From sequence record PZ247578.1: a stretch of 37,944 nucleotides of DNA; one strand, written 5' to 3'. This DNA is from a phage. The stretch's first letter is position 1. Every line of letters begins with the position of its first letter. The translations under genes and the position numbers were made by a program. The notes under the pieces were generated by a model. It was not told the DNA's origin. It did no database searches and saw only the letters and a program-made list of their open reading frames with translations. Positions 19,825 to 24,484 of this stretch are shown here, one piece after another.

Positions 19825-19826
19825 GA

Positions 19827-19950: not shown

Positions 19951-21000
19951 ATGGCAAACGTTCCGGGTCAGAAAGTAGGTACAGACCAAGGCAAAGGCAA
20001 ATCTGGTTCCGACGCTCTGGCGTTGTTCCTGAAGGTATTTGCTGGTGAAGTCCTGACCGCATTCACTCGCCGCTCTGTAACTGCTGACAAGCATATTGTC
20101 CGTACAATTCAGAACGGTAAGTCTGCTCAGTTCCCGGTCATGGGTCGCACCTCTGGTGTGTATCTGGCTCCGGGTGAGCGACTGTCCGATAAGCGTAAAG
20201 GTATCAAACATACCGAGAAAGTGATTACCATTGATGGTCTGCTGACTGCCGATGTGATGATTTTCGACATTGAAGACGCGATGAACCACTATGACGTGGC
20301 TGGCGAGTACTCCAACCAGTTGGGCGAAGCTCTGGCTATCGCTGCCGATGGTGCGGTACTGGCTGAGATGGCTATTCTGTGTAACCTACCGGCTGCATCT
20401 GATGAAAACATCGCTGGTCTTGGCAAAGCGTCTGTGCTGGAAGTTGGTACTAAAGCAGACCTGAACACTCCGGCTAAGCTGGGTGAAGCAATCATCGGTC
20501 AACTGACCATTGCTCGTGCGAAGCTGACATCCAACTACGTTCCTGCTGGCGACCGTTACTTCTACACCACGCCGGACAACTACTCTGCAATCCTCGCGGC
20601 TCTGATGCCGAACGCTGCTAACTATGCTGCGCTGATTGACCCAGAGACTGGTAACATCCGTAACGTAATGGGCTTCGTGGTTGTTGAAGTTCCACACTTG
20701 ACTCAGGGTGGTGCTGGGGAAACTCGTGGTGCCGATGGTATCACTATTGCGACTGGTCAGAAGCACGCCTTCCCAGCTACTGCTACTGGTGATGTTAAAG
20801 TTGCTCTGGACAACGTTGTGGGCCTGTTCTCTCACCGTTCTGCTGTAGGTACTGTTAAGCTGCGTGACTTGGCGCTGGAACGTGACCGTGACGTCGATGC
20901 TCAGGGCGACCTGATTGTTGGTAAGTACGCTATGGGTCACGGTGGTCTGCGTCCAGAAGCAGCAGGCGCACTGGTTTTCACAGCGGCGTCAGCGGGTTAA
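19951..21000 (+). CDS. Major capsid protein 10A, 349 aa
   Basis: DALALFLKVFAGEVLTAF, KHTEKVITIDGLLTADV, LMPNAANYAALIDPE, KYAMGHGGLRPEAAG closely match recalled T7 gp10A. Confidence 0.97.
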   Translation: MANVPGQKVGTDQGKGKSGSDALALFLKVFAGEVLTAFTRRSVTADKHIVRTIQNGKSAQFPVMGRTSGVYLAPGERLSDKRKGIKHTEKVITIDGLLTADVMIFDIEDAMNHYDVAGEYSNQLGEALAIAADGAVLAEMAILCNLPAASDENIAGLGKASVLEVGTKADLNTPAKLGEAIIGQLTIARAKLTSNYVPAGDRYFYTTPDNYSAILAALMPNAANYAALIDPETGNIRNVMGFVVVEVPHLTQGGAGETRGADGITIATGQKHAFPATATGDVKVALDNVVGLFSHRSAVGTVKLRDLALERDRDVDAQGDLIVGKYAMGHGGLRPEAAGALVFTAASAG

Positions 21001-21263
21001 CGACCTTTAAGGCCCTCTCTACAGAGGGTCCTACCTTAGAGACGTATAGTTCTACGGTGGGAACCAGCCTGAAGGTTGACTTCCCTGAGCTTTCAGATGT
21101 GACCGATTGGTCGCTGCTTGAGGTGACTACGCCTGATGGTGTTAGCTACTCACGTAGAACCAACAGTCTCTACTTCAAGGCCACCTCTGGCGTGGAAGGT
21201 CTGGTGATTGTTGGGTATGACGGTACGCCTGTGCGTTCCTTCAACGTATCTTTCACAAACTAA
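19951..21263 (+). CDS. Minor capsid protein 10B, produced by a programmed -1 frameshift at GGTTTTC (20973..20979), with a C-terminal extension of about 94 aa
   Basis: The heptamer matches the T7 10A/10B shift site; the -1 frame is open from the heptamer to the stop at 21261..21263. Confidence 0.7.
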
Positions 21264-21268
21264 TTGAA

Positions 21269-21308
21269 ACCCCTTGGGTGCCTTCGGGTGCTTGAGGGGT
21301 TTTTTTGC
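21269..21308 (+). terminator. Phage late terminator (T7 Tphi-like): GC-rich hairpin with a UUCG loop plus a U7 tract
   Basis: AAACCCCTTGGGTGCCTTCGGGTGCTTGAGGGGTTTTTTTGC, in the Tphi position after gene 10. Confidence 0.85.
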
Positions 21309-21323
21309 TTAAGGAGTAAACCT

Positions 21324-21890
21324 ATGGCTCAATACATTCCACTGAATGCTAACGATGACTTAGACGCCATCAACGATATGTTAGCTGCTATCGGTGAACC
21401 AGCAGTCCTACAGCTTGACGAGGGGAACGCTGACGTATCAAACGCTCAACGTATCCTGCATCGTGTCAATCGTCAGGTCCAAGCTAAGGGATGGAACTTT
21501 AACATCAATGAAGCTGCTGTCCTGACACCTGATGTCCAAGACAACAGGATTCGATTCCTGCCGTCATACCTTCGTGTAATGACTGCCGGGGCCACCAGCT
21601 ACTACAGCAACATGGGTGGATACCTGTACGACCTGTCCACTCAGTCAACCACTTTCACCGACCCTATCACGGTAGAGCTTGTGGAGATGAAGCCATTCTC
21701 CGAGATGCCTGTGGTCTTCAGGGACTACATCGTCACTAAAGCTAGCCGTGAGTTCAACGCTAAGTTCTTCGGTAGCCCAGAGTCTGAACTGTACCTTCGT
21801 GAGCAGGAAGCAGAACTCTATCAGCAGGTTATGGAGTACGAGATGGACACTGGTCGCTACAACATGATGTCTGACATCGGGAGGGACTAA
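21324..21890 (+). CDS. Tail tubular protein A (gp11 homolog), 188 aa
   Basis: LNANDDLDAINDMLAAIGEP, NAQRILHRVNRQVQAKGWNFNI, FRDYIVTKASREFN match recalled T7 gp11; start at ATG 21324 (SD AAGGAG), not 21264. Confidence 0.92.
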   Translation: MAQYIPLNANDDLDAINDMLAAIGEPAVLQLDEGNADVSNAQRILHRVNRQVQAKGWNFNINEAAVLTPDVQDNRIRFLPSYLRVMTAGATSYYSNMGGYLYDLSTQSTTFTDPITVELVEMKPFSEMPVVFRDYIVTKASREFNAKFFGSPESELYLREQEAELYQQVMEYEMDTGRYNMMSDIGRD

Positions 21891-22117
21891 TGGCTAGTCA
21901 CAACCTGAAGATTCACCGCCAACACTTTGGTCCGGTACAGCTAGGTCTAAAGACAGCAGAGCTGAGACTTAACGACCGGGACTTTAAGGTTGGCGATTGG
22001 CTTATCCTGAATGAGTGGGACAACGGATACACTGGACAACAGGTAGCTCGTAAGGTTGTCCACATTGCTGACGTTGGTGACATCGCTGAAGGATACGTCC
22101 TAATGAGTATGATTTAA
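21890..22117 (+). CDS. Small hypothetical protein (75 aa), possibly ASCH/PUA-like (DUF3850-type), between the tail tubular A and B genes
   Basis: Start overlaps the gp11 stop (TAATG); the pattern HxLKIHRQHF...RLNDRDFKVGDWLILNEWD...YTG...V looks like small ASCH-like phage proteins; from memory only. Confidence 0.55.
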   Translation: MASHNLKIHRQHFGPVQLGLKTAELRLNDRDFKVGDWLILNEWDNGYTGQQVARKVVHIADVGDIAEGYVLMSMI

Positions 22118-22126
22118 GGAGGGCCT

Positions 22127-24484
22127 ATGCCACTAATTACTCAATCAATCAAAAATCTTAAAGGTGGCATTAGCCAGCAGCCTGATATACTGAGGTTCTC
22201 AGACCAAGGCGAGGCACAGGTTAACTGCTGGTCATCCGAGAGTGATGGACTCCAGAAGCGCCCACCTACAGTCTTCAAGCGACGTCTTAACATCGACGTT
22301 GGGAGCAACCCTAAGTTCCACCTGATTAACCGTGACGAGCATGAGCAGTATTACATCGTGTTCAATGGGTCCAACATTCAGGTAGTTGACTTGAGTGGTA
22401 ATCAATACTCAGTGTCCGGTGTGGTAGATTACGTAACTTCCTCCAACCCACGAGATGACATCCGTGTCGTTACCGTGGCAGACTATACGTTCGTCGTGAA
22501 CCGTAAGGTTGTAGTCAAAGGAGGAAGCGAGAAGTCACACTCTGGTTACAATCGTAAAGCAAGAGCTTTAATCAACCTGCGTGGTGGACAGTATGGTCGA
22601 ACCCTTAAGGTTGGAATCAACGGTGGCGTTAAGGTCGAGCATAAGCTACCAGCAGGTAATGATGCCGAGAAGGACCCACCTAAGGTGGACGCTCAGGCCA
22701 TTGGTGCAGCTCTGAGAGACCTTCTTGTTGCTGCCTATCCTGCCTTCACGTTTGACCTTGGGTCTGGCTTCCTACTAATCACAGCTCCTTCAGGGACCGA
22801 CATTAACTCAGTGGAGACGGAGGATGGCTACGCTAACCAGCTAATCAGCCCAGTCCTAGACACGGTGCAGACAATCTCTAAGCTGCCTCTTGCGGCTCCC
22901 AATGGGTACATCATTAAGATTCAGGGTGAGACAAACAGTAGCGCCGATGAATACTACGTGATGTATGACTCCAACACTAAGACGTGGAAGGAGACAGTGG
23001 AGCCGGGAGTTGTCACTGGGTTCGATGTCACCACAATGCCACATGCTCTGGTCAGACAGTCTGATGGCTCCTTTGAGTTCAAGACTCTGGATTGGTCCAA
23101 GCGTGGTGCTGGTAACGATGACACAAACCCTATGCCTAGCTTCGTGGATGCTGCGATTAATGATGTGTTCTTCTACAGGAACAGACTTGGGTTCTTGTCG
23201 GGTGAGAACGTAATCATGAGCCGTTCAGCCAGCTACTTTGCGTTCTTCCCTAAGAGTGTGGCGACACTGAGTGATGCTGATCCTATTGATGTAGCTGTAA
23301 GTCACCCTCGAATCTCAATCCTTAAGTATGCCGTTCCGTTTAGCGAGCAGCTACTACTTTGGTCGGATGAGGTTCAGTTCGTGATGACAAGCTCTGGGGT
23401 CCTTACCTCGAAGTCTATCCAGCTTGATGTAGGCTCAGAGTTTGCCTTAGGTGATAATGCCAGACCGTTCGCTGTAGGACGCTCAGTCTTCTTCTCAGCT
23501 CCTCGTGGGTCATTCACCAGCATTAAGCGATACTTCGCTGTAGCTGATGTGTCTGATGTGAAGGATGCTGATGATACAACCGGTCACGTATTGTCCTACA
23601 TCCCTAACGGGGTGTTTGATATTCAAGGTACAGGGACTGAGAACTACATCTGCGTCAACTCTACAGGTGCGTACAACCGTATCTACATCTACAAGTTCTT
23701 GTTTAAGGACGGCGTACAGCTTCAAGCCTCTTGGTCACACTGGGAGTTCCCTAAAGATGATAAGATTCTGGCGTCTGCTTCTATTGGCTCTACCATGTTC
23801 ATCGTTCGTCAGCACCAAGGAGGGGTAGACATTGAGCACCTTAAGTTCATCAAGGAGGCAACTGACTTTCCGTTAGAGCCGTATAGACTCCACGTTGACT
23901 CCAAGGTGTCTATGGTAATACCAATTGGCTCGTACAACGCTGACACCTATAAGACTACGGTTGACATTGGTTCTGCTTATGGTGGAAACGCCCCGTCTCC
24001 CGGTCGGTACTATCTTATTGACAGTCAGGGTGCTTATTTGGACCTTGGGGAATTAAACAGTATATCTACTGTGATTACCCTCAACGGCGATTGGTCAGGA
24101 CGTACAGTGTTCATCGGACGGCCCTATCTGATGTCCTACAAGTTCTCACGGTTCCTGATTAAGATTGAAGATGATAGTGGCACTCAGTCTGAAGACACTG
24201 GTCGTCTACAGCTTCGTCGGGCTTGGGTCAACTACAAGGACACTGGCGCTCTGAGACTAATTGTCAGAAACGGTGAGCGGGAGTTCGTGAATACCTTCAA
24301 CGGGTACACCCTTGGTCAGCAAACCATCGGTACTACAAACATTGGTGACGGGCAGTATCGCTTCGCTATGAATGGTAACGCATTAACCACGAGTCTAACC
24401 TTAGAGTCCGACTATCCTACCCCAGTGTCCATCGTTGGGTGTGGCTGGGAGGCATCATACGCTAAGAAAGCTCGTTCAGTCTAA
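22127..24484 (+). CDS. Tail tubular protein B (gp12 homolog), 785 aa
   Basis: N-terminus ITQSIKNLKGGISQQPDILRFSDQG..QKRPP matches T7 gp12; SD AAGGAGGG. Confidence 0.93.
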   Translation: MPLITQSIKNLKGGISQQPDILRFSDQGEAQVNCWSSESDGLQKRPPTVFKRRLNIDVGSNPKFHLINRDEHEQYYIVFNGSNIQVVDLSGNQYSVSGVVDYVTSSNPRDDIRVVTVADYTFVVNRKVVVKGGSEKSHSGYNRKARALINLRGGQYGRTLKVGINGGVKVEHKLPAGNDAEKDPPKVDAQAIGAALRDLLVAAYPAFTFDLGSGFLLITAPSGTDINSVETEDGYANQLISPVLDTVQTISKLPLAAPNGYIIKIQGETNSSADEYYVMYDSNTKTWKETVEPGVVTGFDVTTMPHALVRQSDGSFEFKTLDWSKRGAGNDDTNPMPSFVDAAINDVFFYRNRLGFLSGENVIMSRSASYFAFFPKSVATLSDADPIDVAVSHPRISILKYAVPFSEQLLLWSDEVQFVMTSSGVLTSKSIQLDVGSEFALGDNARPFAVGRSVFFSAPRGSFTSIKRYFAVADVSDVKDADDTTGHVLSYIPNGVFDIQGTGTENYICVNSTGAYNRIYIYKFLFKDGVQLQASWSHWEFPKDDKILASASIGSTMFIVRQHQGGVDIEHLKFIKEATDFPLEPYRLHVDSKVSMVIPIGSYNADTYKTTVDIGSAYGGNAPSPGRYYLIDSQGAYLDLGELNSISTVITLNGDWSGRTVFIGRPYLMSYKFSRFLIKIEDDSGTQSEDTGRLQLRRAWVNYKDTGALRLIVRNGEREFVNTFNGYTLGQQTIGTTNIGDGQYRFAMNGNALTTSLTLESDYPTPVSIVGCGWEASYAKKARSV

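Follow-up and report, generated by a model that had tools for sequence, protein, structure and literature searches.

A standalone minimal ASCH domain of the DUF3850 family encoded between the tail tubular protein genes of a K1F-like phage

The DNA analysed here is a stretch of 37,944 nucleotides (sequence record PZ247578.1; the whole stretch is called the window below) from a Kayfunavirus, a K1F-like T7 relative of the Studiervirinae, and the region under study is 95–96% identical to many Kayfunavirus genomes. The genes for tail tubular proteins A (gene 11) and B (gene 12) are separated in the window by a 75-residue ORF, the DUF3850 ORF, which is the counterpart of gene 11.05 of phage CR44b and of the 'RNA-binding protein' of phage PE3-1 (Table 1). 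The initial annotation had coupled this ORF to the gp11 stop, and the letters bear this out: the gp11 stop codon TAA (21888–21890) and the ATG of the ORF have one base in common (TAATG). The Shine-Dalgarno sequence of the ORF, GGGAGGG at 21879–21885, lies within the 3´ end of gene 11 at a spacing of 5 nt. Gene 12 begins nine bases past the stop codon of the ORF, with its own AAGGAGGG (22116–22123) in front. The same annotation had claimed that T7 has no counterpart at this position, which is correct, as genes 11 and 12 of T7 are only 23 nt apart. Two further points concern the gene calls. The mechanical ORF of gene 11 begins with TTG at 21264 and passes through a terminator-like hairpin (21266–21303), and the true start is almost certainly the ATG at 21324 behind TAAGGAG, which yields the 188-residue gp11 found in all relatives. 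Two minus-strand ORFs within the DUF3850 gene (21913–22083 and 21947–22063) were rejected as shadow ORFs, since the genes of this phage type all lie on the plus strand.

Table 1. Coordinates of the genes and signals around the gp11/gp12 junction (positions in the window).
Feature	Coordinates	Strand	Remarks
Tphi-like terminator hairpin, between genes 10 and 11	21266..21303	+	Terminator scan; 'terminator phiTE' in the PE3-1 annotation
Gene 11, tail tubular protein A, 188 aa	21324..21890	+	Pfam Tube; upstream of the DUF3850 ORF
Putative translational coupling signal, GGGAGGGACTAATG	21879..21892	+	Shine-Dalgarno, gp11 stop and ATG of the DUF3850 ORF
DUF3850 ORF, 75 aa, 8.5 kDa	21890..22117	+	ATG 21890, TAA 22115–22117; standalone minimal ASCH/DUF3850 domain
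ASCH octapeptide codons, G19-L-K21-T-A-E24-L-R26	21944..21967	+	GxKxxExR, 'GKER' type; followed by the DUF3850-specific N28-D29-R30-D31 loop
Second copy of the Shine-Dalgarno–ATG module, AAGGAGGGCCTATG	22116..22129	+	Restores a ribosome-binding site for gene 12 at the 3´ boundary of the 237-nt indel
Gene 12, tail tubular protein B (nozzle), 785 aa	22127..24484	+	Pfam Phage_nozzle; downstream of the DUF3850 ORF

The nearest matches to the phage promoter consensus (TAAACTATCACTATAGG) are located at 19825 (phi10) and 24508 (phi13), with no match between them, and the terminator scan revealed no terminator-like site in 21890–22126. Because of this promoter-free interval, genes 11, 11.05 and 12 are reached solely by read-through of the Tphi-like terminator. 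The late tail genes of T7 are likewise reached by terminator read-through. A moron, that is, an autonomous insertion, was considered and rejected, as the gene lacks its own promoter and terminator and sits within the operon. Across the whole window, eleven plus-strand promoter matches (core AACTATCACTATAGG) were detected at 2382, 5461, 7147, 8228, 10353, 16017, 18838, 19825, 24508, 31784 and 36993, and these positions match the locations of class II and III promoters of the T7 type. Further upstream, the frame at –1 to gene 10 stays open past the gene 10 stop (20998–21000) up to 21263, and a T7-like slippery heptamer, G GTT TTC, is found at 20973–20979. The 68-residue 'ORF' at 21057–21263 thus most likely represents the C-terminal extension that a –1 frameshift adds to the minor capsid protein 10B; it is annotated in this way in CR44b and as a separate hypothetical protein in PE3-1 and LET1.

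The initial annotation had read an ASCH-like, DUF3850-type pattern in the translated sequence, and profile searches confirmed this reading. Pfam DUF3850 (PF12961) matches the protein with 70.1 bits against a cut-off of 22.9 bits (E=1.9e-19; profile positions 2–76 of 77), Pfam ASCH (PF04266) with 26.2 bits against a threshold of 21.2 bits (profile positions 2–61 of 103), and PHROG 986 ('RNA-binding protein') at 2.8e-35; the NCBIfam search of the same protein returned no match. The DUF3850 signature (H4, K7, K21-T-x-E24-x-R26-x-N-D-R-D, G35-D36, E42, T48-G49) is complete in the window protein, and its residues are 89–100% conserved across 230 distant members. The sole solved relative by sequence is 3IUW (E=1.2e-10 with the sequence alone and 2.1e-22 with a profile). 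Structure prediction, which had been proposed as a check on the ASCH assignment, gave an ASCH-like fold: the AlphaFold2 model, built from a 66-sequence alignment, has a mean pLDDT of 95.7 and consists of six strands and one helix. In Foldseek comparisons, this predicted model superimposes on 3IUW with TM scores of 0.89–0.92 and therefore has the fold of the solved DUF3850 member. The next matches are YqfB, PH0355, PF0470 and EOLA1, followed at lower ranks by ZmASCH and TRIP4-ASCH. The ASCH domain is incomplete in the phage protein, which lacks the C-terminal helical half and ends after the sixth strand, so that it represents a minimal version. We are nearly certain that the gene encodes a standalone minimal ASCH (PUA-like) β-barrel of the DUF3850 family.

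This family is large. A library-wide HMMER scan (E ≤0.001) revealed 5324 cluster representatives at 50% identity, and a profile search yielded 1787 proteins. Many relatives are 150–400 residues long (P0126–P0263 and alignment A3) and carry an N-terminal DUF3850 domain with an unannotated C-terminal extension. The fusion partners of 76 multidomain relatives are mostly unannotated tails; DUF551 (9/76) is the only recurrent partner, a dATP/dGTP pyrophosphohydrolase domain as well as LexA and other HTH domains occur in single cases, and none of the partners in this set is indicative of function.

A length of 75 codons is by itself weak evidence for a gene, as the window holds 150 six-frame ORFs of at least 55 residues. 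The reality of the DUF3850 ORF instead follows from its Pfam match, from its presence at the same gp11/gp12 junction in phages whose copies range from 100% down to 61% amino acid identity, and from a pairwise dN/dS of 0.07–0.16 (dS up to about 2.5), which is comparable with that of the essential gp12 (0.06–0.20). The gene length and the junction signals are also kept across lineages. The ORF could instead be a chance reading frame or a decaying remnant without function, as it is small, is missing from some relatives and has lost its NDRD loop in the CR44b copy. This view is practically excluded: the selection analysis refutes a spurious or decaying ORF, and the family match, the confident fold prediction and the conserved length and signals stand equally against it.

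The DUF3850 gene itself is already known, since identical proteins are annotated in many GenBank and RefSeq phages; the interpretation in the initial annotation is supported. A copy with at least 80% identity is present in 155 phage records, and the protein is 100% identical to the RefSeq 'RNA-binding protein' of PE3-1 (YP_009044285) and to several others. Elsewhere, it is labelled 'activating signal cointegrator' (JSS1), 'DUF3850 domain-containing protein' (vB_EclP_26) or '11.05' (CR44b), and it is also annotated in LM33_P1. None of the 7 papers that a full-text literature search on DUF3850 turned up contains functional data, and searches for an 'activating signal cointegrator' in T7-like phages or for the Kayfunavirus 'RNA-binding protein' found nothing. 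The new details added here are the precise 237-nt indel and the dispensability that goes with it, the non-structural contexts of the family, the CR44b virion notes, the conservation of the octapeptide and the acidity of the protein.

K21, E24 and R26 are invariant in alignments A1–A3. Among 230 distant DUF3850 members outside the Kayfunavirus clade, H4, K7, K21, E24, R26, D29, R30, D36 and E42 are 98–100% conserved (K21 99%, E24 98%), and N28 (93%), T48 (89%, or 98% when Ser is included) and G49 (97%) follow closely. Judged from these alignments, the conservation pattern looks like that of an active site. HMMER aligns K21/E24/R26 with K21/T24/R26 of YqfB, and the octapeptide, which lies on the second strand, is also aligned with the PF0469 motif. 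F13 (F/Y in 99%) and Y69 (81%) are candidate counterparts of Tyr14 and Tyr81, which position the nucleoside in TthASCH. YqfB hydrolyses N4-acetylcytidine (ac4C) by means of Lys21, Thr24 and Glu74, with Arg26 also among the catalytic residues (PMC9599836); K21 and R26 are the only members of this set present in the phage protein. EOLA1, which carries K21/E24/R26, deacetylates free ac4C (bioRxiv 10.64898/2026.08.01.741249). According to a preprint from the Meskys laboratory, 19 of 19 tested ASCH proteins, GKER-type proteins included, remove ac4C34 from E. coli tRNA in vitro, and the Lys/Glu dyad is essential for this removal in tested ASCH proteins (bioRxiv 10.64898/2026.02.27.708502). The dyad of the GKER-type deacetylases is present in the phage protein as K21/E24.

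For the window protein, the net charge is –1 and the pI 6.4, and the medians of 144 standalone DUF3850 members are –1 and 6.2. This slight acidity is more in keeping with a pocket for a small ligand than with the binding of a polyanion. The label 'RNA-binding protein' is a superfamily-level inference that fits poorly with an acidic protein of 75 residues, and it is unsupported because the DUF3850 members are acidic, not basic.

K1F, the type phage of the genus (L082), has no DUF3850 ORF, and its gp11 and gp12 share 100% and 97.6% identity with the window proteins. In K1F, the 14-mer GGGAGGGACTAATG leads directly into gene 12, so that the K1F-type junction reads GGGAGGGACTAATGCC.... The two phages thus differ by a precise 237-nt indel between two copies of a GGAGGG-N(2-3)-(T)ATG module, and because these copies bound the indel, both genes are translatable in either state. 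In an even sample of 60 records, drawn from the 212 that contain a gp11/gp12 junction, the gene is present in at least 41 and missing in 14 Kayfunavirus-type records; those without it include K1F, PhiNW-B1, SH3, SH4, IMM-002 and SFPH2. The DUF3850 gene is dispensable, since K1F and about a quarter of the sampled Kayfunavirus records do without it.

A simple deletion in K1F by slippage between the GGAGGG..ATG repeats was considered and rejected on account of the diverged flanks. Over 63 nt each, the end of gene 11 (21827–21890) and the start of gene 12 (22127–22189) are 92% and 81% identical to K1F, respectively, with most other 63-nt blocks at 95–100%. Because these flanks are unusually diverged, allelic exchange is at least as likely as slippage to be the cause of the presence/absence pattern, which suggests that the two states are exchanged by recombination together with short diverged flanks. 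A sharp mosaic boundary was also observed when the metagenome contigs L083 and L084 were compared with 21324–24484 of the window. In L083, gp11 is 100% identical to that of the window (dS 0.2), and the ORF and gp12 are diverged (68% identity, dS ~2.6, and 74% identity, dS ~1.5, respectively), which locates a recombination breakpoint between gp11 and the ORF. The tail tubular B gene and the DUF3850 gene seem to have been exchanged together, and the latter has long been resident and moves along with gp12. Its GC content (~0.50) equals that of the flanking genes; there is hence no sign of recent acquisition, and a foreign-DNA signature was rejected.

Outside Kayfunavirus, DUF3850 genes are not typical of structural modules. 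The neighbourhood survey covered two genes per side on other viral contigs with a callable gene, which gave 142 proteins after removal of duplicates. The most frequent neighbours are helicases, primases, P2 gpA, NinB, NinG, endonuclease VII, HNH endonucleases and transcription regulators, and Dam, N6_N4 methylases and Mom occur in single cases; in all, more than 60 other phage loci have genes of these kinds, DNA methyltransferases included, beside DUF3850. P0061, among the closest relatives outside the T7-like phages (59–61% identity), is encoded in a lambdoid nin region, with the replication genes on one side and NinB on the other. The DUF3850 gene of a P2-like phage comes after gene A and is followed by genes for a methyltransferase and a ParB-N protein. 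That of Kagunavirus is flanked by the primase gene and by a large gene without annotation; in L014, the homologue of this large gene matches a DNA helicase PHROG. In the T1-like Tunavirus vB_EcoS_SH2 (L094, 3492–5461), the DUF3850 gene is found among small early genes, two genes upstream of polynucleotide kinase. Polynucleotide kinases are an enzyme class linked to tRNA repair, and their proximity is a possible hint of an RNA-related context.

The position of the gene and its coupling to gp11 could indicate a virion-associated or tail-assembly protein. A structural protein would be genus-wide and required for particles; the gene is missing in K1F, in 14 of the 60 relatives, which have the same gp11 and gp12, and in T7, which disfavours such a role. 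The GenBank record of CR44b flags eleven virion proteins by mass spectrometry (gp7.3, of 82 residues, 8, 9, 10A, 11, 12, 14, 15, 16, 17 and 17.01) and carries no such note for 11.05; this evidence is negative, and it comes from a divergent homologue with 45% identity to the window protein. Two further phages are uninformative for the DUF3850 protein: the virion proteomics of phage B1 covered six structural proteins from gel bands, and in vB_ShiP-A7 the tail tubular A and B genes follow each other directly, with none in between. A part in the virion or its assembly is very improbable, and a non-structural accessory role is quite likely.

The explanation that we consider best, and hold with about even confidence, is that of a non-structural, dispensable accessory gene for a soluble nucleobase-pocket protein that is possibly a deacylase. 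From the anatomy of the junction, the protein would be translated by termination-reinitiation coupled to gp11 and would be made in modest amounts late in infection. It would be a soluble protein with a nucleobase pocket lined by K21, E24 and R26 together with H4, K7, N28-D29-R30, D36, E42 and T48. This pocket would accept a free or flipped-out base, probably an N-modified one. Amide hydrolysis is the most likely chemistry because of the analogy with every ASCH protein tested (YqfB, TthASCH, EOLA1, TRIP4-ASCH and others): an ac4C-type base would be deacylated, on the nucleoside or at exposed positions of host tRNA or RNA, with K21/E24 as the catalytic dyad. A catalytic deacylase, argued from this analogy, is possible but less likely than not. 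The protein covers the N-terminal ~60% of the ASCH profile, and nothing in it corresponds to the Glu74 region of YqfB; catalysis could hence be lost or different, and the extra invariant residues specific to DUF3850 suggest a substrate other than ac4C. Production late in infection and in step with gp11 would also be uncommon for an enzyme of host takeover or counter-defence.

The barrel could also be a non-catalytic reader of nucleic acids, as the database label 'RNA-binding protein' implies; it would attach to RNA or DNA, with m6A or another modified base as a conceivable target, and mask or recruit. PUA-like relatives, namely EVE, YTH and the TRIP4 ASCH domain bound to dsDNA, are among the fold matches, a few relatives are fused to LexA or HTH domains, and Dam, N6_N4 methyltransferase and Mom are occasional neighbours. 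In addition, ParB-CTPase-DUF3850 fusions are reported beside parA in phages, and DUF3850 may replace the DNA-binding HTH there (PMC12704722). However, the net charge is –1 both for the protein and at the family median, conservation is almost complete for the K/E dyad, which in tested ASCH proteins is catalytic, YTH and EVE use aromatic cages instead, and 75 residues leave little surface for backbone contacts. We consider a pure reader unlikely.

Somewhat more doubtful still, on an estimate that is not exclusive of the other readings, is a counter-defence or host-interaction factor whose pocket would bind or destroy an immune signal derived from a nucleotide, or else a modified base needed for defence. 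Such a function would explain the patchy accessory distribution. In its favour are the presence/absence polymorphism among near-identical phages, the location in accessory regions of lambdoid (nin), P2-like, T1-like and other phages, and the very large, phage-enriched family. Nevertheless, the PADLOC defence models gave no hit (the best, at E=0.007, is meaningless), and the literature search gave no experimental link to counter-defence. Late expression downstream of Tphi would be poorly timed for counter-defence unless the protein were packaged, for which the CR44b homologue carries no mass-spectrometry note.

We return to the accessory nucleobase-pocket protein as the preferred reading. The boldest reading, in which a lytic T7-like phage uses a minimal 75-residue ASCH enzyme to erase an N-acyl base modification late in infection, is a long shot; such an enzyme may act on ac4C34 of the host elongator tRNA-Met or on another acylated or modified nucleobase or nucleotide of host defence. 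If this were true, the enzyme would be the first 'eraser' of nucleic-acid modifications in this family to come from a virus. The gene is an ordinary, well-behaved member of a large phage family, and the observation itself adds little. The family, however, is among the larger uncharacterised families of small phage proteins, and it keeps the ASCH octapeptide that 2026 preprints have tied to ac4C deacetylation. K1F and the window phage are near-isogenic natural plus/minus variants, and these, together with the newly described ASCH chemistry, make the function of the family directly testable.

Compared with the known ASCH enzymes, the phage protein is reduced and divergent. E. coli YqfB (1TE7, 9KYF–9KYH), an N4-acetylcytidine amidohydrolase, shares 16–17% identity with it; K21 and R26 are common to both, whereas the catalytic Thr24 of YqfB is replaced by Glu and the Glu74 region has no counterpart. 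The GKER-type deacetylases (T. thermophilus TthASCH, 2DP9; human EOLA1; TRIP4 ASCH) resemble it in the PUA-like barrel, the GxKxxExR motif and the Lys and Glu at the same positions. In contrast to the phage protein, which stops after the core barrel, they are domains of 120–160 residues with C-terminal helices, and identity is ~10–15% with Foldseek E values of at least 0.2. DUF3850 further differs from them by its own invariant residues H4, K7, N28, D29, R30 and E42.

Within the family, the DUF3850 genes of the nin-region, P2-like, Kagunavirus and Tunavirus phages encode the same domain with 45–61% identity and are likewise small accessory genes. Their modules are early or replication ones, and C-terminal extensions are frequent among them, whereas the tail-gene operon setting is found only in Kayfunavirus. 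PE3-1, LM33_P1, JSS1, CR44b and more than 150 other Kayfunavirus records share the locus from the gp11 stop to the gp12 start as well as the coupling. The CR44b gene 11.05 (L088, 1650–1874), with only 45% identity, deviates in its octapeptide and loop: E24 is replaced by Asp, and SIPE replaces the NDRD loop, of which N-D-R is 93–99% conserved elsewhere. This copy may have diverged in function or be in decay. The solved member 3IUW is an 83-residue protein of E. faecalis V583 (NP_814290) that was determined by structural genomics and deposited as an 'activating signal cointegrator'. Its setting is a Gram-positive chromosome or prophage host rather than a Gram-negative lytic podophage; nothing essential differs between the two proteins, and the window ORF is a bona fide member of the DUF3850 family.
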